64,000 nucleotides of DNA from Escherichia coli (GTDB lineage: Bacteria > Pseudomonadota > Gammaproteobacteria > Enterobacterales > Enterobacteriaceae): NCBI RefSeq assembly GCF_003334815.1, contig NZ_QOWO01000002.1. One strand, written 5' to 3'. The notes below the pieces were generated by a model, which was not told the origin of the DNA, searched no databases, and saw only the letters and a list, made by a program, of their open reading frames with translations. Positions 304 to 14,731 of the stretch are shown in pieces. Position numbers and translations under genes: made by a program. The first letter of the stretch is position 1; the number at the start of each line of letters is the position of its first letter.

Positions 304-1017
304 ATGGAATCATACTCGCAAAACAGCAATAAATTAGATTTTCAGCACGAGGCCAGGATATTAAACGGTATATGGCTCATTACCGCTTTAGGTTTGGTGG
401 CAACCGCAGGACTAGCCTGGGGAGCTAAGTATCTCGAAATTACGGCAACCAAATATGATTCACCACCAATGTATGTCGCCATAGGGTTATTATTACTTTG
501 TATGTATGGCTTAAGTAAGGATATCAACAAGATAAATGCCGCCATCGCGGGCGTAATATATCTGTTTTTACTCTCTTTGGTGGCGATTGTCGTTGCAAGT
601 TTAGTTCCTGTATATGCCATTATCATCGTGTTCAGCACTGCGGGCGCGATGTTTTTAATCAGTATGCTGGCCGGTTTATTATTTAATGTTGATCCTGGTT
701 CTCACCGTTTTATCATTATGATGACGTTGACAGGGTTGGCCCTGGTAATCATCGTGAATGCGGCATTAATGAGTGAACGGCCCATTTGGGTAATAAGTTG
801 CTTAATGATTGTGTTATGGTCAGGCATTATCTCGCATGGACGAAATAAGCTCCTTGAATTGGCGGGGAAATGCCATAGTGAAGAGTTGTGGAGTCCGGTT
901 CGTTGCGCTTTTACAGGTGCATTAACACTCTATTACTATTTTATCGGCTTCTTTGGGATACTTGCCGCGATAGCTATAACGCTTGTCTGGCAAAGGCATA
1001 CGCGTTTTTTTCATTAG
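304..1017 (+). CDS. ybhM: Inner membrane protein YbhM (BAX-inhibitor-1/YccA-like multi-pass membrane protein)
   Basis: ORF track 237 aa, strongly hydrophobic multi-helix translation; size and position upstream of ybhN-clsB-ybhP match E. coli K-12 order (recalled). Confidence 0.8.
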   Translation: MESYSQNSNKLDFQHEARILNGIWLITALGLVATAGLAWGAKYLEITATKYDSPPMYVAIGLLLLCMYGLSKDINKINAAIAGVIYLFLLSLVAIVVASLVPVYAIIIVFSTAGAMFLISMLAGLLFNVDPGSHRFIIMMTLTGLALVIIVNAALMSERPIWVISCLMIVLWSGIISHGRNKLLELAGKCHSEELWSPVRCAFTGALTLYYYFIGFFGILAAIAITLVWQRHTRFFH

Positions 1018-1052
1018 CCGTAAATGCACATACTAAAGAACTTAACTAAACT

Positions 1053-2009
1053 TCACATCGCCGCTTCATTTTTCGCCCGTAGCTTCTTCGCCTGGCTTTC
1101 CAGCAACAGGTAACAGATCAGCGCCAGCAGCAGTGGGATAAAGTAATACAGCACACGGTAAGCGAGTAGGGCGGCGATAATTGTACCTTTGGAGGTATGC
1201 TCCCCAGCCAGTAGTGCGATAAACACCGCTTCCAGCACACCGATCCCCGCCGGAATATGCACGATGACGCCAGCAATACTACTAACCAGTAACACGCCCA
1301 GTACAAAGAAATAGTTCACGCTTTGACCAAGTAACAGCCAGATAATCGCCCCCATTACCATCCAGTTAACGCTGGAAATCAGCATCTGAGCGAGGGCGAA
1401 TTTCCATGAAGGCAGCACCAGCTTTTGCCCTTTGATGGTCATATGGCGGTGCTTCGCGAAAGCGCAAAACCACAAATAAACCGCGATAATCATCAGTAAG
1501 CCAATGCCGAGAATACGCAGCGTAGTTTGATCGACATACCAGTGATCCGGCAACTCCACCACGCCTGCGGTAAAGATAATCCCTGCCAGTAAAATGTAGC
1601 CCAGCCAGTTGGTGGTAATACTGAGCGAGAAAATCCGCGTAATAGTGCTACCGGGCAACCCCAGACGAGAGTACAAACGATAGCGCATACCAATGCCGCC
1701 GACCCAGGTACTGAGCGTCAGGTTGAAGGCGTAGCAGATAAACGACACCAGCATCACCTGGCGCTTCGCCAGTTTGTGACCGCAGTAAAAGCGGGCGAGC
1801 AGGTCATAGCAGCCGTAAATCAGATAGCTGACGACCACCAGCCCGACCGCACTAAGCAGCGCAACGCGATTGTAGTCGCGGATGACCTTCCAGACCTCTT
1901 CCCAGTCCACTTTTTTGGCGTAGACCACCAGCAACACAATCACCGCGATAAAAAACAGCCAGGTGAGGATCTTCTTTGCTAAGCGCCAGCGCGGGTGTGA
2001 TTTACTCAT
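1053..2009 (-). CDS. ybhN: UPF0104 inner membrane protein YbhN (LPG-synthase-TM-like domain)
   Basis: ORF track 318 aa, polytopic membrane protein; start codon shares 1 nt with clsB stop (TGATG). Confidence 0.85.
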   Translation of the reverse strand: MSKSHPRWRLAKKILTWLFFIAVIVLLVVYAKKVDWEEVWKVIRDYNRVALLSAVGLVVVSYLIYGCYDLLARFYCGHKLAKRQVMLVSFICYAFNLTLSTWVGGIGMRYRLYSRLGLPGSTITRIFSLSITTNWLGYILLAGIIFTAGVVELPDHWYVDQTTLRILGIGLLMIIAVYLWFCAFAKHRHMTIKGQKLVLPSWKFALAQMLISSVNWMVMGAIIWLLLGQSVNYFFVLGVLLVSSIAGVIVHIPAGIGVLEAVFIALLAGEHTSKGTIIAALLAYRVLYYFIPLLLALICYLLLESQAKKLRAKNEAAM

Positions 2010-3250
2010 CAGGGTTTTACCCCCGTGTTTTCAGTTTCTACCCGATCCTGCGTTTCCATTGTCGGTTGTGCGGGCGGATCAACCTGCGCCAGACGTGGCG
2101 TGTGTGCCGGAAGCCAGCCAACCAGCGCCGGGAAGTGGCGTAAAAAGTGGAACGCCAGCACGCTTTTGGTCAGGTTCCACCAGGTGCGTTTGGGCAGCAT
2201 GGTTTCATCCACCTGCTGACAATCTGCGGCAATAATGCCGTTCAGATTATCGCGCAGCGTCTGGTTAAAATGACGATCGTGGATGATGACATTTGCTTCG
2301 AGATTCAGTGACAAACTGAGCGGATCGAGATTACTGGACCCTACTGTCGCCCAGTGATCGTCCATCAATGCCACTTTGCCGTGGAGCGGGCGGCGGCGGT
2401 ACTCAAAAACCTGAACGCCGCCTTTAACCAGATAGTTATACAGCAAGCGCGCACCGACTCTGACAATCGGCATATCCGGTTCGCCCTGAATGATCAGTTT
2501 GATCCGCACCCCGCGCCGTGCCGCTTTACGCAAGGCGTGTAAAAATCGATAGCCGGGGAAGAAGTAGGCGTTGGCGATAATCACTTCCCGCCGCGCCTGA
2601 GTGAGCATTTTCAAATAATGGCGTTCAATATCATCGCGATGTTCTTCGTTATCGCGCCAGACCAGCAATACCTGCGCTTCTCCCGGCTGGCGGTTCTCTT
2701 CCGCTTTGTGATGACGTCGCCACCAGCGTCGTGCCGCGCTCTGTCCAGGCAGGTTTTCCAGCTCAAACTGGAGAATATCTTCGACAATCGGCCCTTCAAG
2801 GCGTACCGCGTAATCCTGTTTAGCCTCTGGACCGTAGCTGGACATATGCTCGGCGGAGTAATTCAGCCCGCCAATAAAGGCTATACGCGCGTCGATCACC
2901 ACAATTTTGCGATGCATCCGGCGAAACACATTGGTGCGCATACCAAAAAGGCGAGGGCGGGGATCGTAGTAGCGGAACACTACGCCAGCTGCCGTCAGTT
3001 CATTGACAAACTCATCGCTGAGATCCGGCGAACCGTAGCCATCCAGCAAGACTTCCGCTTTAACCCCGCGTTGCGCTGCTGCCAGTAGTGCCGCATGCAG
3101 TTGTTTGCCGACGTCATCCTCAAACCAGATAAACGTTTCAAGAATGATGCGTTCTTGTGCCTCGCCAATCGCCTTAAACACCGCGGGATAATATTGCTCG
3201 CCGTTTTCCAGCAACTGGATCTTATTGCCTTCGCGCCAGCTACATTTCAT
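2009..3250 (-). CDS. clsB: Cardiolipin synthase B (phospholipase D superfamily)
   Basis: ORF track 413 aa; two HKD motifs readable (HRKIVVID...; HGKVALMDD...SSNLD). Confidence 0.9.
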
Positions 3251-4008
3251 AAATGAATCTCCGCACTTAAAGGGGCATGATCAGAAAGGTGTCGCCATGT
3301 CCGCAGCGGCAACGCGGTTGGCGCGCTGGCGCTGGCATTTTTGACGTAGATCCTGTCCAGTCGTAGTAGAGGAAATTGCACCGGAAACGTGCGCGCCGGG
3401 CGTCCGTGGGCGCGGGTAAAAATCTCATCCAGTCCGGCCTGCACTTTTAACGGATGATTAGCTTTTTGCCGCCAGTCATTGAAATCACCCGCCACCAATA
3501 CCGGTTCGCCGTCCGGTAGCTCATTCACCCATTCGGCGAGCATCGCAAGCTGCGCCTGACGGTGCGCCTCACGCAGGCCCAGATGTACGCACATCACATG
3601 AATCGCTTTTCCGGTCATCGGCGGCACAATGCGGCAGTAGAGCACGCCGCGCTTTTCCGCACCATCGACCGAAACATCGCGATTCTCATAATGTTCAATG
3701 GGATAACGCGACAGTACGGCGTTGCCGTGATGCCCTTCCGGGTATACGGCATTGCGACCGTAGGCAAAATCGCTCCACATAGTGTCGGCGAGAAACTCGT
3801 AGTGCGAGGTATCGGGCCAGTTTTCCACATGCAGCGGATGAACTTCGTGCGCGCCCATCACTTCCTGCAGGCAAACAATATCGGCGCTGACGGTACGCAC
3901 GGCGTCGCGAAGTTCCGGCAAAATGAAGCGTCGGTTAAACGCGGTAAAGCCTTTGTGAATATTGATGGTGAGCACCTTGAACGAAAATTGTTGTGTTTGA
4001 TCGGGCAT
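3247..4008 (-). CDS. ybhP: Endonuclease/exonuclease/phosphatase-family protein YbhP
   Basis: ORF track 253 aa; stop overlaps clsB start; first gene of ybhP-clsB-ybhN unit. Confidence 0.85.
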
Positions 4009-4140
4009 AATTTTCCTGTCTTTGCCTCTTATCTCATTGAAATAGTGTAGTCGGCGTCACAAAAAGGTGCGGTCTTACGGAATTTTCCGTAAAGTTCGGT
4101 ACTCTGAGTAAGTAGAGATAAATTCTTCAGGAGAGAAGCC

Positions 4141-4551
4141 ATGAAGTGGCAACAACGTGTTCGTGTCGCAACGGGTCTAAGTTGCTGGCAGATTATGTTG
4201 CATTTACTGGTAGTGGCGCTGCTGGTGGTGGGCTGGATGAGTAAGACTCTGGTTCACGTCGGCGTGGGATTATGCGCACTGTATTGTGTCACGGTAGTGA
4301 TGATGCTGGTGTTTCAGCGCCACCCCGAGCAACGCTGGCGTGAGGTGGCAGACGTGCTGGAAGAGCTGACCACGACCTGGTATTTTGGCGCAGCGCTGAT
4401 TGTGCTGTGGCTGTTGTCCCGCGTTCTGGAAAACAACTTTTTGCTGGCAATTGCAGGGCTGGCAATCCTTGCCGGCCCGGCGGTAGTGTCTTTGCTGGCG
4501 AAAGATAAGAAGTTACATCACCTTACGTCTAAACATCGCGTACGCCGCTGA
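4141..4551 (+). CDS. ybhQ: Inner membrane protein YbhQ
   Basis: ORF track 136 aa, hydrophobic helices; 3' end overlaps the convergent ybhR 3' end. Confidence 0.8.
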
Positions 4552-5619
4552 CCCTGTCGTGGCCGTTATCACCAGTAGCGGCCACAAACTATTCCACACA
4601 ATATCCAGACTCGCATCCTTCAAATAAATCTGCTTGGTAATGTCCGTAAAGTGGCGAATAGGGTTAATCCACGTCAGGTTTTGCAGCCATACCGGCATGT
4701 TTTCCACCGGAGAAACGTAACCGGAAAGGAGAATGGCGGGCATCATAAAGACAAACACGCCGATAAACGCCTGCTGTTGTGTTGAACAGAGTGATGAAAT
4801 CAACAGACCGAATCCCACCAGCGATAAACCATAAATCACCATCGTAAAGTAGAACAGCGCCAGCGATCCGGCGAAGGGGATTTGATACGCCCAGATACCA
4901 ATCGCCAGCACAATGGTGGCCTGGAAGGTGGCGACAATTAACGCCGGTACGGCTTTGCCGATGAAGATCTGCCAGGTGGTGAGCGGCGAAACCAGTAGCT
5001 GATCGAGCGTACCTTGTTCACGTTCGCGGGCGACGGAAAGTGAAGTGACGATCATTACGCCGATAGTGGTGATCATGGCGATCAGTGACGGCACCACAAA
5101 CCATTTGTAGTCGAGATTCGGGTTATACCAGTTGCGTACCACCAGCTCGCTGTTGTTAGGTTTCGGTTTTCCTTCCAGCAGCTCCTGCTGATAATTTTTG
5201 ACGATCTGTTGCAGGTAGTTGGCGGCAATTTGCGCACTGTTGGAGTTACGCCCGTCGAGGATCAACTGCAAAGGCGCGGTCTGGAAGGTATCCAGTTTGC
5301 GCGAGAAGTCAGCCGGGAAACGCACCAGTAGTAACGCCTTTTGTGTGTCGATGGTTGGGCGGATCTCCTGTGGGCTTTTCAGCAGCAGCACATGAGTAAA
5401 GGCGCTGGCGCGGGCAAAACGTTGGGTCAGCTCCACCGAATGCTCGCCGTTATCTTCATCGTAGATGGCGATGGTGGCGTTAGTCACTTCCAGCGTGGCG
5501 GCGAACGGGAACAGGATCACCTGAATTAGCACGGGTAAAATCAGAATCGCGCGGGTTTGCGGTTCGCGCAGCAACGACTGCAACTCTTTGCGGATTAACG
5601 TCCATAAGCGATGAAACAT
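4513..5619 (-). CDS. ybhR: ABC-2 type transporter permease YbhR
   Basis: ORF track 368 aa; ABC-2 permease architecture (large N-terminal loop then TM bundle); in ybhGFSR operon. Confidence 0.9.
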
Positions 5620-5629
5620 GCTCTTCTCC

Positions 5630-6755
5630 CTAATCCAGCCGACGTTTGGTTTTCAGCCACGTCAGGCCGATAAACATCACCGCCGAAGCGATCAAAAACA
5701 GCACGTTTACCACCAGCACCACTGGAATATTCCCGGCGAGGAACAGGCTTTGCAGGGTGCTGACGAAATAACGAGCGGGAATAATGTACGTCACCGCGCG
5801 GATCACCGCGGGCATACTGTCGATCTGAAAAATAAAGCCGGAAAGCATAATCGACGGCAGAAAAGCGGCGTTCAGGGCGACCTGAGCGGCATTGAACTGG
5901 TTGCGGGTAATCGTGGAAATCAGCAGCCCCATCCCCAGGGTACTGAGTAAAAACAGGCTGGAGATAAAAAACAGAATCAGCAGCGACCCGCGATACGGCA
6001 CGCCGAGAATAAACACTGACACCAGCATACACAGCAACATCGCCAGCATCCCGAGAAAGTAATAAGTGATCAGCTTACACAGCAGCAGTTCCGTGCGGGT
6101 AATCTCCGTAGAGAGCAGAGCCTCCATGGTGCCGCGTTCCCATTCTCGCGCCACCACCAGCGAGGTGAGAATCGCGCCGATGACCGTCATGATAATGGTC
6201 ACCGCACCGGGGATAATGAAGTGCTGGCTAATCGCCGCCGGGTTAAACCAGTAGCGGGTTTGTACATCAATAAGCGGTTCAAAAGTCTGCCCGTTGTCCT
6301 CCGCTCGCTGCATTTGCCAGATCTGCCAGATCCCTTCGACATACCCCTGTACAAAGTTAGCGGTATTCGGCTCACTGCCGTCGGTGATCACCTGAATCGG
6401 TGCGGTGGCGTTGGCGCGCTCCATCTGTTCCGCAAAATCCACCGGAATAACCACCAGACCGCGAATTTTCCCCGCCTGCATTTTGGCGATCAGTTCCTGA
6501 CGGTTATCGCTGATGGTGGCGTCGATGTAGGGCGAACCGGTCATGGTGTGGGTGAAATCCAGCGCCGCTTCGCTACGCTGTTCCAGTAAAATCCCGACCC
6601 GCAGCTTGCTGGAGTCGAGGTTAATGCCGTAACCAAAAATAAACAGCAGTAGCAGCGGGATCACTACCGCAATCAGCCAGCTACTCGGATCGCGAACGAT
6701 CTGCCGCGTCTCTTTAACGCACAGCGCCCGTACGCGACGCCAGGACAGGATCGGG

Positions 6756-6763
<8 letters not shown>
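5630..6763 (-). CDS. ybhS: ABC-2 type transporter permease YbhS
   Basis: ORF track 377 aa; paralogous architecture to ybhR. Confidence 0.9.
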
Positions 6764-10154
<3,391 letters not shown>

Positions 10155-10382
10155 CGCACAGTCCATTCTTAATCAAATGATTGATTAAGATTATGACTCC
10201 ATAGGGGAGTTGTCCAGTATGGCTAAGAATTTTAGCAACGCCAGTCACAGGGATAATTTATGCGCTGCGTCACAAAAACTGCTACACTCCGCTCCCTCAT
10301 GACATTGTGGTTTTTGTCATTTTCCTTTTCAGTATCTCCCTGAAAACTACACCGGTAACGGTCGGGGCGGTTCGGAGTAGTT

Positions 10383-11747
10383 ATGTCTTTCGATTCTTTG
10401 GGTTTAAGCCCTGATATCCTGCGCGCCGTTGCCGAGCAGGGTTACCGTGAACCCACCCCTATTCAGCAGCAGGCGATCCCTGCGGTGCTGGAAGGCCGCG
10501 ACCTGATGGCTAGCGCCCAGACCGGCACCGGCAAAACAGCGGGCTTTACGCTGCCGCTGTTGCAACACCTGATCACTCGCCAGCCGCACGCCAAAGGGCG
10601 TCGTCCGGTACGTGCGCTCATTCTTACCCCGACCCGTGAACTGGCGGCGCAGATTGGCGAAAACGTCCGTGATTACAGCAAATACCTGAACATTCGTTCG
10701 CTGGTGGTGTTTGGTGGTGTGAGTATTAACCCGCAGATGATGAAACTGCGTGGCGGCGTTGATGTGCTGGTGGCAACCCCGGGACGTTTGCTGGACCTGG
10801 AACATCAGAATGCAGTGAAGCTGGATCAGGTTGAAATCCTCGTCCTCGATGAAGCTGACCGCATGCTCGACATGGGCTTTATCCACGATATCCGTCGCGT
10901 GTTAACAAAACTACCTGCGAAGCGCCAGAACCTGTTATTCTCCGCGACCTTCTCTGACGATATTAAAGCCCTGGCGGAAAAACTGTTGCACAACCCGCTG
11001 GAAATCGAAGTGGCACGCCGCAATACCGCGTCTGATCAGGTGACCCAGCACGTTCACTTTGTCGATAAGAAACGCAAACGCGAATTGCTGTCGCACATGA
11101 TTGGGAAAGGGAACTGGCAGCAGGTGCTGGTGTTTACCCGTACCAAACACGGCGCTAACCATCTGGCTGAACAGCTCAATAAAGATGGCATCCGTAGTGC
11201 GGCGATCCACGGCAATAAATCGCAAGGTGCGCGTACTCGTGCGCTGGCTGATTTTAAATCGGGCGATATTCGTGTACTGGTGGCAACTGACATCGCTGCG
11301 CGCGGCCTGGATATTGAAGAGCTGCCGCACGTCGTCAACTATGAACTGCCAAACGTACCTGAAGATTATGTCCACCGTATCGGGCGTACCGGTCGTGCGG
11401 CTGCTACCGGTGAAGCGTTGTCGCTGGTGTGTGTTGATGAACACAAACTGCTGCGTGATATCGAAAAACTGCTGAAAAAAGAGATCCCGCGCATTGCGAT
11501 TCCGGGCTATGAGCCGGACCCGTCAATCAAAGCCGAACCGATCCAGAACGGTCGCCAGCAACGTGGCGGCGGCGGTCGTGGGCAAGGTGGTGGTCGCGGT
11601 CAACAGCAACCACGCCGTGGGGAAGGTGGCGCAAAATCTGCAAGCGCGAAACCTGCAGAAAAACCGTCTCGCCGCCTCGGCGATGCCAAACCGGCAGGCG
11701 AACAACAACGTCGCCGCCGTCCGCGTAAACCTGCCGCTGCGCAGTAA
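10383..11747 (+). CDS. rhlE: ATP-dependent DEAD-box RNA helicase RhlE
   Basis: ORF track 454 aa; Walker [13 protein letters not shown] box (VLDEADRM), Arg/Gly-rich C-terminal tail. Confidence 0.95.
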
Positions 11748-11799
11748 TCTTTTATGCCGGGCTATGCCCGGCATCAGGCTGATGAACAAACGCAAAACT

Positions 11800-11900
<101 letters not shown>

Positions 11901-11978
11901 TCACAACAAGCACTTGTCAGCAATTTGAGAACACGGGAAAAAATTTATCTGTTTTACCGCCCATAAGCCACCGAGACG

Positions 11979-12461
11979 TTACTTCTCTATAGCCAATTGT
12001 TCGCGCAACTCCATTAAAAGGTAGCCCAGTCGATTCTTGCCCTTACCATGACCACCGTCTCCCCAGTAAGCATCGTTTTCCGTATGCTCAACCAGTTTTG
12101 CGGGCGCGGTTGCCAGCAAGAGCGCACGCAGTTCTGCATGCTGTTCGAATTTAGCGCGAAGTGCTTTTCGCATCACCTGTTCTTTGACCGACTCCCAGTT
12201 TTTACGCAGAGGCTTAGAACGATCGCGCCCCATGCGTGCGGCGACCATAGGGGAAGAAACCCGACGGATCTCTTCGCGGTATTTTTCATCAAGGAATTTT
12301 TGTGCCTGAAAATAGTGTTCTGAGGTGGGCCAGGTTTTCCCGTCAACCTTGATGGGCCAGGCGGCAAAGTTAGAAAAATCACCGTAGTCATCGCTGGTGC
12401 TGTAGAAATTTATGATGGTGTCTTGCATGACGTGTTGGATCCTTTGTGCTCGAACGGGCAT
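11979..12461 (-). CDS. ybiA: YbiA/NADAR-family N-glycosidase
   Basis: ORF track 160 aa; divergent from dinG. Confidence 0.85.
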   Translation of the reverse strand: MPVRAQRIQHVMQDTIINFYSTSDDYGDFSNFAAWPIKVDGKTWPTSEHYFQAQKFLDEKYREEIRRVSSPMVAARMGRDRSKPLRKNWESVKEQVMRKALRAKFEQHAELRALLLATAPAKLVEHTENDAYWGDGGHGKGKNRLGYLLMELREQLAIEK

Positions 12462-12546
12462 TAAACCGCATTATGTTGGTGGTTATTGCGAGCCGCTTTC
12501 CAGAAACAGAAAAACCATTACCCCTGAAAACCGAAAAATGCCACAA

Positions 12547-12566
12547 TATTGGCTGTTTATACAGTA
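12547..12566 (+). promoter_or_regulatory. LexA operator (SOS box) of dinG
   Basis: TATTGGCTGTTTATACAGTA with CTG-N10-CAG core, ~15 nt upstream of dinG ATG. Confidence 0.85.
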
Positions 12567-12580
12567 TTTCAGGTTTTCTC

Positions 12581-14731
12581 ATGGCATTAACCGCCGCGCT
12601 TAAAGCGCAAATTGCCGCCTGGTATAAGGCGCTTCAGGAACAGATCCCCGACTTTATTCCCCGTGCGCCGCAGCGGCAGATGATTGCGGACGTCGCCAAA
12701 ACGCTGGCCGGAGAAGAAGGGCGACATCTGGCGATTGAAGCCCCCACCGGCGTTGGGAAAACGCTCTCTTATTTGATTCCCGGCATCGCCATTGCCCGCG
12801 AAGAGCAAAAAACGCTGGTGGTGAGTACCGCCAACGTGGCATTGCAGGATCAGATTTACAGCAAAGATTTACCGCTGCTGAAAAAGATCATTCCCGATCT
12901 TAAATTCACTGCCGCTTTTGGGCGTGGGCGCTACGTTTGTCCGCGTAATCTGACGGCGCTCGCCAGTACTGAACCCACGCAACAGGATCTGCTGGCGTTT
13001 CTTGACGACGAACTGACGCCGAACAATCAGGAAGAGCAAAAACGTTGTGCGAAGCTGAAGGGCGATCTCGATACTTATAAATGGGATGGTCTGCGCGATC
13101 ATACTGATATCGCTATAGATGACGATCTCTGGCGTCGTTTAAGTACCGACAAAGCCAGCTGCCTCAACCGCAATTGTTACTACTATCGTGAATGCCCGTT
13201 TTTTGTCGCTCGTCGGGAGATTCAGGAAGCGGAAGTGGTGGTGGCAAACCATGCGCTGGTGATGGCGGCGATGGAAAGCGAAGCGGTATTGCCTGACCCG
13301 AAAAATTTACTGCTGGTGCTGGACGAAGGCCATCACCTGCCGGATGTGGCGCGGGATGCGCTTGAGATGAGCGCCGAAATCACCGCGCCGTGGTATCGGC
13401 TACAGCTGGACTTGTTCACGAAACTGGTCGCTACCTGCATGGAGCAGTTTCGCCCGAAGACCATCCCACCGCTGGCGATCCCTGAACGTTTGAATGCGCA
13501 TTGTGAAGAGTTGTATGAGCTTATCGCCTCGTTAAACAACATTCTCAATCTCTACATGCCTGCCGGGCAGGAGGCAGAGCACCGTTTTGCGATGGGCGAA
13601 CTGCCAGATGAAGTGCTGGAGATCTGCCAGCGGCTGGCAAAACTCACCGAGATGCTGCGTGGCCTGGCGGAGTTATTTCTTAACGATTTAAGTGAGAAAA
13701 CCGGCAGCCATGACATTGTACGTCTGCATCGGTTGATTTTGCAGATGAACCGCGCGTTGGGGATGTTCGAGGCGCAAAGCAAACTCTGGCGGCTGGCTTC
13801 GCTGGCGCAATCTTCCGGTGCACCGGTGACCAAATGGGCGACGCGGGAAGAGCGCGAAGGGCAGCTACACCTCTGGTTTCACTGCGTGGGAATACGTGTC
13901 AGCGATCAGCTGGAAAGGCTGCTGTGGCGCAGTATTCCGCACATTATTGTCACCTCCGCAACCTTGCGTTCGCTGAACAGTTTTTCGCGTTTGCAGGAGA
14001 TGAGTGGTCTGAAAGAGAAAGCGGGCGACCGTTTTGTGGCGCTGGATTCCCCCTTTAACCACTGCGAACAGGGCAAAATTGTTATTCCCCGGATGCGCGT
14101 TGAGCCTTCCATCGACAACGAAGAGCAGCATATTGCCGAAATGGCGGCCTTTTTCCGTAAGCAGGTGGAGAGCAAAAAACATCTCGGTATGTTGGTACTG
14201 TTTGCCAGCGGACGGGCGATGCAGCGCTTTCTCGACTATGTGACGGATTTACGTCTGATGTTGCTGGTTCAGGGCGATCAGCCGCGTTACCGTTTAGTTG
14301 AACTGCACCGCAAACGCGTCGCCAACGGTGAGCGCAGCGTGCTGGTGGGCTTACAGTCATTTGCCGAAGGGCTTGATTTGAAAGGTGATCTGCTCAGCCA
14401 GGTGCATATCCACAAAATCGCTTTTCCGCCCATCGACAGCCCGGTGGTGATCACCGAAGGGGAATGGCTGAAAAGCCTCAACCGCTATCCGTTTGAGGTG
14501 CAAAGCCTGCCGAGCGCCTCGTTTAACCTGATTCAGCAGGTTGGGCGACTGATTCGAAGCCACGGTTGCTGGGGCGAAGTGGTTATCTACGACAAACGCT
14601 TGCTGACCAAAAATTATGGCAAGCGACTACTGGATGCATTACCGGTATTTCCGATAGAGCAACCGGAAGTCCCTGAAGGTATAGTTAAAAAGAAAGAAAA
14701 AACGAAATCCCCACGCCGTCGGCGGCGTTAA
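12581..14731 (+). CDS. dinG: ATP-dependent DNA helicase DinG (SOS-inducible, Fe-S helicase)
   Basis: ORF track 761 aa; start trimmed to MALTAALKAQ (716 aa) downstream of the LexA box; Walker A EAPTGVGKT, DEGH box (VLDEGHHL), Cys cluster. Confidence 0.9.
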   Translation: MALTAALKAQIAAWYKALQEQIPDFIPRAPQRQMIADVAKTLAGEEGRHLAIEAPTGVGKTLSYLIPGIAIAREEQKTLVVSTANVALQDQIYSKDLPLLKKIIPDLKFTAAFGRGRYVCPRNLTALASTEPTQQDLLAFLDDELTPNNQEEQKRCAKLKGDLDTYKWDGLRDHTDIAIDDDLWRRLSTDKASCLNRNCYYYRECPFFVARREIQEAEVVVANHALVMAAMESEAVLPDPKNLLLVLDEGHHLPDVARDALEMSAEITAPWYRLQLDLFTKLVATCMEQFRPKTIPPLAIPERLNAHCEELYELIASLNNILNLYMPAGQEAEHRFAMGELPDEVLEICQRLAKLTEMLRGLAELFLNDLSEKTGSHDIVRLHRLILQMNRALGMFEAQSKLWRLASLAQSSGAPVTKWATREEREGQLHLWFHCVGIRVSDQLERLLWRSIPHIIVTSATLRSLNSFSRLQEMSGLKEKAGDRFVALDSPFNHCEQGKIVIPRMRVEPSIDNEEQHIAEMAAFFRKQVESKKHLGMLVLFASGRAMQRFLDYVTDLRLMLLVQGDQPRYRLVELHRKRVANGERSVLVGLQSFAEGLDLKGDLLSQVHIHKIAFPPIDSPVVITEGEWLKSLNRYPFEVQSLPSASFNLIQQVGRLIRSHGCWGEVVIYDKRLLTKNYGKRLLDALPVFPIEQPEVPEGIVKKKEKTKSPRRRRR

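Follow-up and report, generated by a model that had tools for sequence, protein, structure and literature searches.

How phospholipids cross the bacterial inner membrane, and what the enzyme named ClsB really makes and for what purpose, are two questions on which a single Escherichia coli locus bears: the genes ybhP, clsB and ybhN, carried on the minus strand of a 64,000-nucleotide stretch of contig NZ_QOWO01000002.1 (hereafter the window). At this locus a promiscuous transferase of phosphatidyl groups, on which the Mincle-activating trehalose phospholipids of Salmonella depend, is linked to a stand-alone version of the flippase/scramblase domain of MprF, the only well-studied domain of this kind for bacterial phospholipids. 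Our analysis favours, with a probability of roughly 65%, the view that the three genes form a functional module, induced by general and envelope stress, for the synthesis and probably the redistribution of minor membrane phospholipids. A functional link between the three proteins is drawn from a published two-hybrid contact between YbhN and ClsB, from natural fusions of an endonuclease/exonuclease/phosphatase (EEP) domain such as that of YbhP to a phospholipase D (PLD)-type domain such as that of ClsB, and from the replacement of YbhN by a DedA protein beside such pairs.

The three open reading frames occupy positions 1053-4008 of the window (Table 1). Their DNA is 100% identical to that of E. 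coli K-12 MG1655, where it is annotated as ybhP, clsB and ybhN, and 5423 of the 5426 complete E. coli genomes have the operon (match over 80% or more of the stretch); of 5430 places matched, two are plasmid-borne, and a few genomes carry two copies. A first-pass annotation, made from the letters alone, had placed the trio at exactly these coordinates, with overlapping stop and start codons at both junctions, two HKD motifs in ClsB, an EEP fold for YbhP and membership of YbhN in the family of the MprF flippase region, and all of this was borne out. The genes lie on one strand without intergenic gaps, and their overlapping stop and start codons are preceded by Shine-Dalgarno-like sequences. Within the three genes, the operon strand shows no promoter-like site in a simple sigma-70 scan, the six terminator-like matches are within chance (4.3 +/- 2.4 expected), and an Rfam scan of positions 800-4400 returned no match. 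The shared strand and overlaps, the lack of an internal promoter-like site, the published co-induction and the conserved gene order together support the reading of ybhP, clsB and ybhN as one operon. The overlaps themselves are real but ordinary, and overlaps of 4 or 1 nucleotides (nt) also occur at 4 of the 27 other same-strand neighbour pairs in the window.

Such overlaps allow translational coupling; they do not imply a fixed stoichiometry or an obligate complex. The first-pass annotation had taken them to argue for stoichiometric co-expression, a step that is not supported, because overlaps do not fix ratios and the unequal published fold-changes argue against equal expression of the three genes. 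An inhibitor of LolCDE induced ybhP 17.6-fold, clsB 12.3-fold and ybhN 4.4-fold, values that fall along the operon (PMC5105897), and dependence on RpoS was 251-fold for ybhP and 7-fold for ybhO, that is clsB (PMC2907692). All three genes are co-induced in RNA sequencing data (PMC5105897, PMC10100675), ppGpp-linked stress induces the operon along with otsBA (PMC10100675), and stationary phase also induces it (PMC12846801).

The 132-bp divergent region between ybhQ and ybhP holds two conserved blocks. One of them, TTTTTGTGAC-N5-CTACACT, is likely to be the core promoter of the operon; we take its CTACACT to resemble the extended -10 element of sigma-S promoters. The simple sigma-70 scan missed this block and reported no site upstream on the operon strand. 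The other block, TTACGGAA-AA-TTCCGTAA, is an inverted repeat that may bind a regulator. In Salmonella the ybhP-ybhQ intergenic region carries a sigma-E peak in chromatin immunoprecipitation (ChIP) (PMC4577112); under the peak, inspection by eye revealed a -35-like GAACTT but nothing that convinced as a -10, and no sigma-E promoter was assigned. One minor sigma factor peak from SELEX lies between ybhO and ybhP, and an H-NS-repressed transcript antisense to ybhN (window ~1053-2009, plus strand) is ended by a Rho-dependent RNA-polymerase-binding aptamer, iRAP#2751 (PMC6847712).

ClsB is a PLD-type transphosphatidylase whose products in the cell include cardiolipin and trehalose phospholipids (PMC6446866, PMC9241728). 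It consists of two PLDc_2 domains (Pfam), matches the NCBIfam equivalog NF008427 over residues 1-408 of 413 (751 bits, cut-off 281) and retains both HKD motifs; the H290A allele of the Salmonella orthologue, which alters the second of them, is catalytically inert (PMC9241728). No transmembrane segment was found in ClsB (the 19-residue Kyte-Doolittle maximum is 1.16, with nothing above 1.6), a property that separates ClsB and ClsC from ClsA and agrees with an earlier report (PMC11698083). A sequence search of the PDB returned no solved relative at E <=0.001. F367, R371, P374 and P381, in or near a predicted C-terminal helix, are invariant in 19 orthologues; the helix may serve as a membrane anchor or for docking, and in its place one EEP-PLD fusion (P0220) has a hydrophobic C-terminal segment. 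In vivo, the role of ClsB with the best documentation, absent from the first-pass annotation, is the synthesis of phosphatidyltrehalose (PT) and diphosphatidyltrehalose (diPT): Reinink et al. (2019) reported that Salmonella and some E. coli strains depend on ClsB for 6-phosphatidyltrehalose and 6,6'-diphosphatidyltrehalose, and not for cardiolipin levels (PMC6446866).

YbhN matches the Pfam family LPG_synthase_TM (PF03706, E 4.6e-15; residues 21-295 on model positions 5-301 of 302), and its hydropathy peaks are spread over its whole length. It aligns with residues 40-342 of the solved Pseudomonas aeruginosa MprF (PaMprF; 9goe), a region that constitutes transmembrane domain 1, the flippase/scramblase (PMC11980842); PDB chains of MprF were matched at E 3e-22. 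Residues E260, R285 and P292 of YbhN, invariant in all 19 orthologues, align with PaMprF E295, R319 and P326, of which the first two form the salt bridge between transmembrane helices (TM) 7 and 8 and the third is the hinge proline of TM8 (PMC11980842). Against the full-length NCBIfam model of MprF, YbhN covers positions 3-301 of 841 and scores 164 bits, below the cut-off of 600, because it lacks the second transmembrane domain and the synthase domain; its score against the flippase-like subfamily TIGR00374 (27.3 bits) is likewise below the cut-off (43.2). A 2022 preprint by Hauser et al., cited in PMC11980842, renamed the protein PplT with the proposal that it is a phospholipid translocase, and found by two-hybrid assay that it binds ClsB (bioRxiv 10.1101/2022.03.11.483950). 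From homology and gene context, lipid translocation is the most likely activity of YbhN.

The third partner, YbhP, belongs to the EEP family (Pfam Exo_endo_phos, PF03372, 3e-23), and the solved structures closest to its AlphaFold2 model, which has a predicted local distance difference test (pLDDT) score of 95.9 when built alone, are all EEP enzymes. N16, E49, D175, N177, D218, D243 and H244 do not vary across an alignment of 45 family members (down to 35% identity); as these residues are what we take to be the canonical EEP metal-binding and catalytic set, YbhP is very probably an active enzyme. Its hydropathy profile contains no hydrophobic segment. Orthology to exonuclease III (xth) was considered and rejected (TIGR00633, 21.4 bits, cut-off 99; PDB match to exonuclease III at E 0.0056). 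None of the literature searched on YbhP assigns it a function, nor did a search of work on trehalose phospholipid synthesis later than PMC6446866 yield one.

What stands above the base rate at the junctions is the conservation of the overlap across genomes. When a YbhP-family profile was scanned over one genome per species and the 80 best loci were examined, a clsB homologue lay directly downstream on the same strand in 70 and ybhN was third in 67. Loci with the trio span beta- and gamma-proteobacteria, from Enterobacterales, Pseudomonas/Stutzerimonas, Cellvibrio and Halomonadaceae to many Burkholderiales. In 62 of the 70 loci, the ybhP TGA stop is overlapped by an NTG start in frame with clsB (NTGA, 4 nt), and in 38 of 67 clsB and ybhN overlap by -4 or -1. 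In a Cellvibrio metagenome-assembled genome (L071:6737-11311), two ClsB and two YbhN matches in series give an apparent tandem duplication, ybhP-clsB-ybhN-clsB-ybhN. In one locus ybhP is immediately preceded, on its own strand, by a DUF72 gene (PF01904, 3.9e-68; L050:5018-5944), and 16 further Pseudomonas/Cellvibrio loci are alike, which suggests a four-gene operon in those genomes.

Outside these lineages the EEP and PLD domains still travel together, and the pair is the conserved core of the module. Three proteins carry both domains in one chain (P0220, P0271 and P0272; Table 1), and two more, P0274 (L088) and P0284 (L087), seem to be partial copies of this architecture. Distant YbhP relatives, with 37-39% identity, adjoin a PLD protein with two HKD motifs in reversed order (L082), convergently (L089) or with overlap (L090). 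Among nine distant places sampled, the PLD was fused or adjacent in seven; one contig ends at the EEP gene, and on one 3.8-kb contig no PLD was seen. A membrane partner of another kind adjoins the EEP-PLD pair or fusion on two metagenomic contigs, where YbhN is absent and a gene of the DedA/VTT family stands beside it. DedA proteins make up the second family put forward as phospholipid scramblases of bacteria, and their transport domains and those of MprF have been called "somewhat interchangeable" (PMC11980842). The recurrence of a scramblase-type partner from two unrelated families supports a sequence of making a lipid and then moving it, with the proviso that the DedA replacement is seen on those two contigs only. 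Other neighbours were also recorded around these distant pairs: an inositol monophosphatase (IMPase)-family gene (Inositol_P), a PLD and a YbhP-like EEP gene in series, membrane partner absent (L082:2947-5753); a NUDIX hydrolase gene upstream of the EEP-PLD fusion on two contigs (L087:4561-4917, L088:3073-3663), with P0276 an EEP-NUDIX fusion; and, in L085, where the contig ends, a gene that overlaps the YbhP homologue and is neither ClsB-like nor YbhN-like, resembling by eye a transporter of the major facilitator superfamily.

Several observations weigh against a joint module. Cardiolipin was reportedly made in vitro by ClsB alone (Guo and Tropp, in 2000). A clsB mutant regains PT and diPT from a plasmid that carries clsB alone (PMC6446866), and the activity of ClsB by itself in complementation and in vitro means that its partners are not strictly needed. 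Deletion of ybhN left the lipid pattern unchanged on thin-layer chromatography (TLC) and caused a mild temperature-dependent fitness defect, and the two-hybrid contacts of YbhN, known from a preprint, are broad, including PgpA, PgpB and PgpC (bioRxiv 10.1101/2022.03.11.483950). The second transmembrane domain of MprF, missing from YbhN, supplies half of the proposed lipid groove (PMC11980842). Dickeya undicola (L012) keeps ybhP-clsB with no ybhN homologue after it, and certain Pseudomonas loci keep a ybhP paralogue without clsB. The fold of YbhP does not point to a lipid substrate, because the fold search did not separate lipid, sugar-phosphate and nucleic-acid EEP enzymes: nucleases, TDP2, nocturnin and sphingomyelinases are its neighbours alike. 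An AlphaFold2 model of the linked trio (YbhP-GS10-ClsB-GS20-YbhN, 19 paired rows) lent no support to a defined complex: it gave no confident mutual placement (predicted template modelling score, pTM, 0.44; mean pLDDT 73.5), and its YbhP part was worse than YbhP modelled alone; it is a model of limited quality and not evidence against a complex. An alignment of the linked E. coli trio with unpaired sequences in MAFFT was misaligned (1911 columns, YbhP rows at 13-16% identity) and was discarded.

Several of these points would fit if the operon were a loose collection of independent stress functions that are merely co-transcribed, with ClsB acting alone, YbhP a stationary-phase nuclease or nucleic-acid phosphodiesterase and YbhN a housekeeping scramblase. 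The sufficiency of clsB in complementation, the TLC result for ybhN and the pTM of the trio all agree with such an arrangement, as do an old annotation of YbhP as a "predicted DNase", its weak matches to the xth model and to exonuclease III in the PDB, and the fact that stop/start overlaps are common. We consider it improbable all the same, since the pairing of EEP and PLD, whether separate, overlapping or fused, extends across very distant lineages, as would hardly be expected if the two shared no pathway, the NTGA overlap persists in most loci, the xth score lies so far below its cut-off that YbhP is not an exonuclease III orthologue, and the scramblase-type partner recurs from two unrelated families. 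The first-pass annotation had argued for a lipid-modifying or lipid-translocating complex rather than ClsB acting alone; of this, an operon and a functional link (two-hybrid, fusions, DedA) find support, and the part that denies ClsB acting alone does not, given that clsB by itself complements, that deletion of ybhN leaves the TLC pattern unchanged and that the model of the trio shows no confident mutual placement.

In the module that we prefer, ClsB works as a peripheral, cytoplasm-facing enzyme that transfers the phosphatidyl group of phosphatidylglycerol (PG) or phosphatidylethanolamine (PE) to an alcohol acceptor. The transfer is documented in published work, and the acceptors known are a second PG, giving cardiolipin, glycerol, giving PG, and, in vivo, trehalose, giving PT and diPT. 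Since trehalose is a cytoplasmic product and ClsB lacks transmembrane helices, the enzyme probably acts at the inner leaflet. YbhN would most likely bring the bulky four-chain or glycolipid products across the inner membrane to its outer leaflet. YbhP, for its part, would most likely act by hydrolysis on a phosphoester at the headgroup end of a ClsB substrate or product, for example by taking a phosphate off the acceptor or an intermediate.

The direction of the YbhP reaction could also be the opposite one. As a phospholipase-C-type lipid phosphodiesterase it would degrade or remodel cardiolipin, PT or diPT, or clear a by-product, and thereby set their level, a role compatible with its intact catalytic residues and its tight genetic coupling to a lipid synthase. 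Such antagonistic turnover seems to us very improbable: YbhP has neither a hydrophobic segment nor an evident membrane-insertion loop, nucleases and other non-lipid EEP enzymes score at least as well as sphingomyelinases in the fold search, and the fusion of a synthase to its own antagonist, as in P0220 and P0271, would be unusual.

Gene neighbourhoods in Pseudomonas and its relatives bear on which lipid the module makes. In seven Pseudomonas, Stutzerimonas and Cellvibrio loci (L020, L050, L057, L058, L067, L071 and L079; positions ~750-12700), the trio is inserted between glgX and the divergent glgB-treS/maltokinase genes, that is within a trehalose/alpha-glucan cluster, a position that fits the trehalose-lipid role of ClsB. 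Nine more Pseudomonas loci (L064, L066, L069, L072, L073, L074, L077, L078 and L080) have a ybhP paralogue, without clsB or ybhN, in the same place between glgX and glgB-treS, with the full trio found elsewhere in no fewer than three of the genomes (sp. Root562, P. izuensis and sp. GM21; L036, L042, L021). A gene for a PIG-L/LmbE-like deacetylase is present in six of the nine paralogue loci (L066, L073, L074, L077, L078 and L080; for example L066:5038-5814), and trio loci outside the glycogen/trehalose cluster often stand beside a gene for an MscS-type channel. No glg/tre linkage of the trio was seen in the Enterobacterales or Burkholderiales loci examined. PA2154-PA2156 of P. aeruginosa are presumably these genes. 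Our literature search found no work that links the Pseudomonas trehalose cluster with a cardiolipin synthase.

This context raises the possibility that the operon is a dedicated pathway that makes and exports PT and diPT and not cardiolipin, with YbhN flipping the glycolipid and YbhP acting as a sugar-phosphate or headgroup phosphatase; YbhP could then dephosphorylate phosphatidyl-trehalose-phosphate or trehalose-6-phosphate, by analogy with phosphatidylglycerophosphate (PGP) phosphatases and inositol 5-phosphatases. Besides the cluster loci, seven with the trio and nine with the ybhP paralogue alone, the co-induction of the operon with otsBA, a dependence on RpoS and ppGpp like that of trehalose synthesis, and the IMPase-family gene ahead of the PLD-EEP pair in L082 speak in its favour. 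A pathway confined to trehalose lipids is nonetheless unlikely on balance. The cluster adjacency is limited to one related group of genomes, and may for that reason be a single ancestral arrangement, with nothing comparable in Enterobacterales or Burkholderiales; no report describes a phosphorylated intermediate; PT and diPT persist when otsA or otsB is knocked out singly (PMC6446866); and the three genes cloned together in Salmonella as "the clsB operon" restore and overproduce cardiolipin from a plasmid in a triple cls mutant (PMC9241728). A module for minor phospholipids in general is the reading that we retain. It is conceivable, though again we think it doubtful, that an EEP phosphoesterase and a PLD transphosphatidylase with a recruited scramblase make up a pathway for bulky glyco-phospholipids, PT and diPT among them, in which a headgroup is attached, a phosphate is then trimmed and the product is exported across the inner membrane. 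YbhP would in that case be the first bacterial lipid-headgroup phosphatase of the EEP family, and "ClsB" would be misnamed. By way of the fusions of EEP to PLD and the conservation of the 4-nt overlap, the analysis points to YbhP as a conserved partner; it also suggests trehalose-linked substrates as the first to try.

The coordinates of the genes, motifs, junctions and comparison loci are collected in Table 1. The genes next to the operon in the window, on the same strand, are ABC-transporter-like (4513-10166, minus strand; open reading frames 4513-5619, 5630-6763, 6756-8507 and onward), with overlaps of -8, -23 and -1 nt, a further sign that short overlaps are frequent in this region.

Table 1. 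Positions of the ybhP-clsB-ybhN genes and of the features discussed, in window coordinates unless a locus is named
Feature	Position	Strand	Description and basis
ybhP	3247..4008	-	253 aa; cytoplasmic EEP-fold phosphoesterase
clsB (ybhO)	2009..3250	-	413 aa; phospholipase-D-type transphosphatidylase, without transmembrane helix
ybhN (pplT)	1053..2009	-	318 aa; polytopic inner-membrane protein, equivalent to MprF transmembrane domain 1 (TM1-8, flippase/scramblase domain)
ybhP stop/clsB start overlap, ATGA, 4 nt	3247..3250	-	Read from sequence: CAT TTA TGA with ATG AAA
GGAG Shine-Dalgarno for clsB	3259..3262	-	Within ybhP 3' end; read from sequence; GGAG-ATG spacing 8 nt
clsB stop/ybhN start overlap, TGATG, 1 nt	2007..2011	-	Shared base 2009; read from sequence: CCC TGA with ATG AGT
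GGGGG run before ybhN start	2020-2024	-	Purine-rich, Shine-Dalgarno-like, within clsB
ClsB first HKD motif, H113-R-K115-IVVI-D120	2891..2914	-	Regular-expression match on translation; Pfam PLDc residues 109-132
ClsB second HKD motif, H290-G-K292-VALM-D297	2360..2383	-	Regular-expression match on translation
ClsB conserved C-terminal helix, residues ~357-378	2117..2182	-	Predicted helix, positions 620-641 of linked AlphaFold2 model
Likely core promoter of operon, TTTTTGTGAC-N5-CTACACT	4044..4065, ~40 nt upstream of ybhP start	-	10 of 11 upstream regions from Enterobacterales carry it nearly unchanged
Inverted repeat (8+2+8), TTACGGAA-AA-TTCCGTAA	4075..4092	.	Kept in 9 of the 11 Enterobacterales sequences aligned; candidate regulator-binding site
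P0220, EEP-PLD fusion	L081:3180-5126		648 aa; N-terminal YbhP-like domain, two HKD motifs, C-terminal hydrophobic segment
P0271, EEP-PLD fusion	L086:5001-6938		645 aa; EEP and PLDc_2 domains
P0272, EEP-PLD fusion			710 aa; EEP and PLDc_2 domains
DedA/VTT gene adjoining EEP-PLD pair	L089:4411-5004		YbhN absent; 4-nt overlap with start of YbhP homologue
DedA-domain gene adjoining EEP-PLD fusion	L081:5136-7268		YbhN absent; VTT fused to pyridine-nucleotide-disulfide oxidoreductase

The operon and the idea that its products work jointly on lipids are already published, and the genes are already annotated, so that the value of the present analysis is limited to sharpening experiments. The PplT proposal of Hauser et al. 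(2022) concerns the same gene and the same operon and already holds the idea of YbhN as a translocase working with ClsB. It differs in that the preprint draws the operon for Enterobacteriaceae only, lists YbhP as of "unknown function" and does not include trehalose lipids, EEP-PLD fusions, the DedA replacement or the Pseudomonas cluster. What is added here is the conservation of the trio and of the ybhP/clsB overlap in beta- and gamma-proteobacteria, the EEP-PLD core with its fusions, the exchange of YbhN for DedA, the trehalose context in Pseudomonas and the two conserved blocks upstream of the operon.

Among systems known from elsewhere, the neutral sphingomyelinases and inositol polyphosphate 5-phosphatases share no family membership with YbhP at the level of sequence; YbhP is a minimal domain of 253 residues without the membrane-binding or accessory elements of those enzymes, and EEP enzymes that act on nucleic acids score equally well. 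The DedA/VTT scramblases (PetA, TMEM41B, VMP1) offer a parallel through the DedA genes that take the place of YbhN by the EEP-PLD pair in L081 and L089, although the family is unrelated to YbhN and is absent from the E. coli operon. Closer in outline is the ClsC-YmdB pair of E. coli (Tan et al., 2012), which resembles ybhP-clsB in that a PLD-type cardiolipin synthase without transmembrane helices is encoded downstream of a small soluble partner with a hydrolase fold, in one operon induced in stationary phase; YmdB, however, is reportedly a macrodomain protein and not an EEP enzyme, its stimulation of ClsC is said to have been shown experimentally, and no third, flippase-like gene is present. 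MprF itself also couples a headgroup-modifying enzyme to a TM1-8 domain, and YbhN keeps both the E-R salt bridge and the hinge proline of that domain. Yet in MprF the two functions reside in one polypeptide, which also has the TM9-14 region that YbhN lacks, and its synthase uses aminoacyl-tRNA instead of PLD chemistry.

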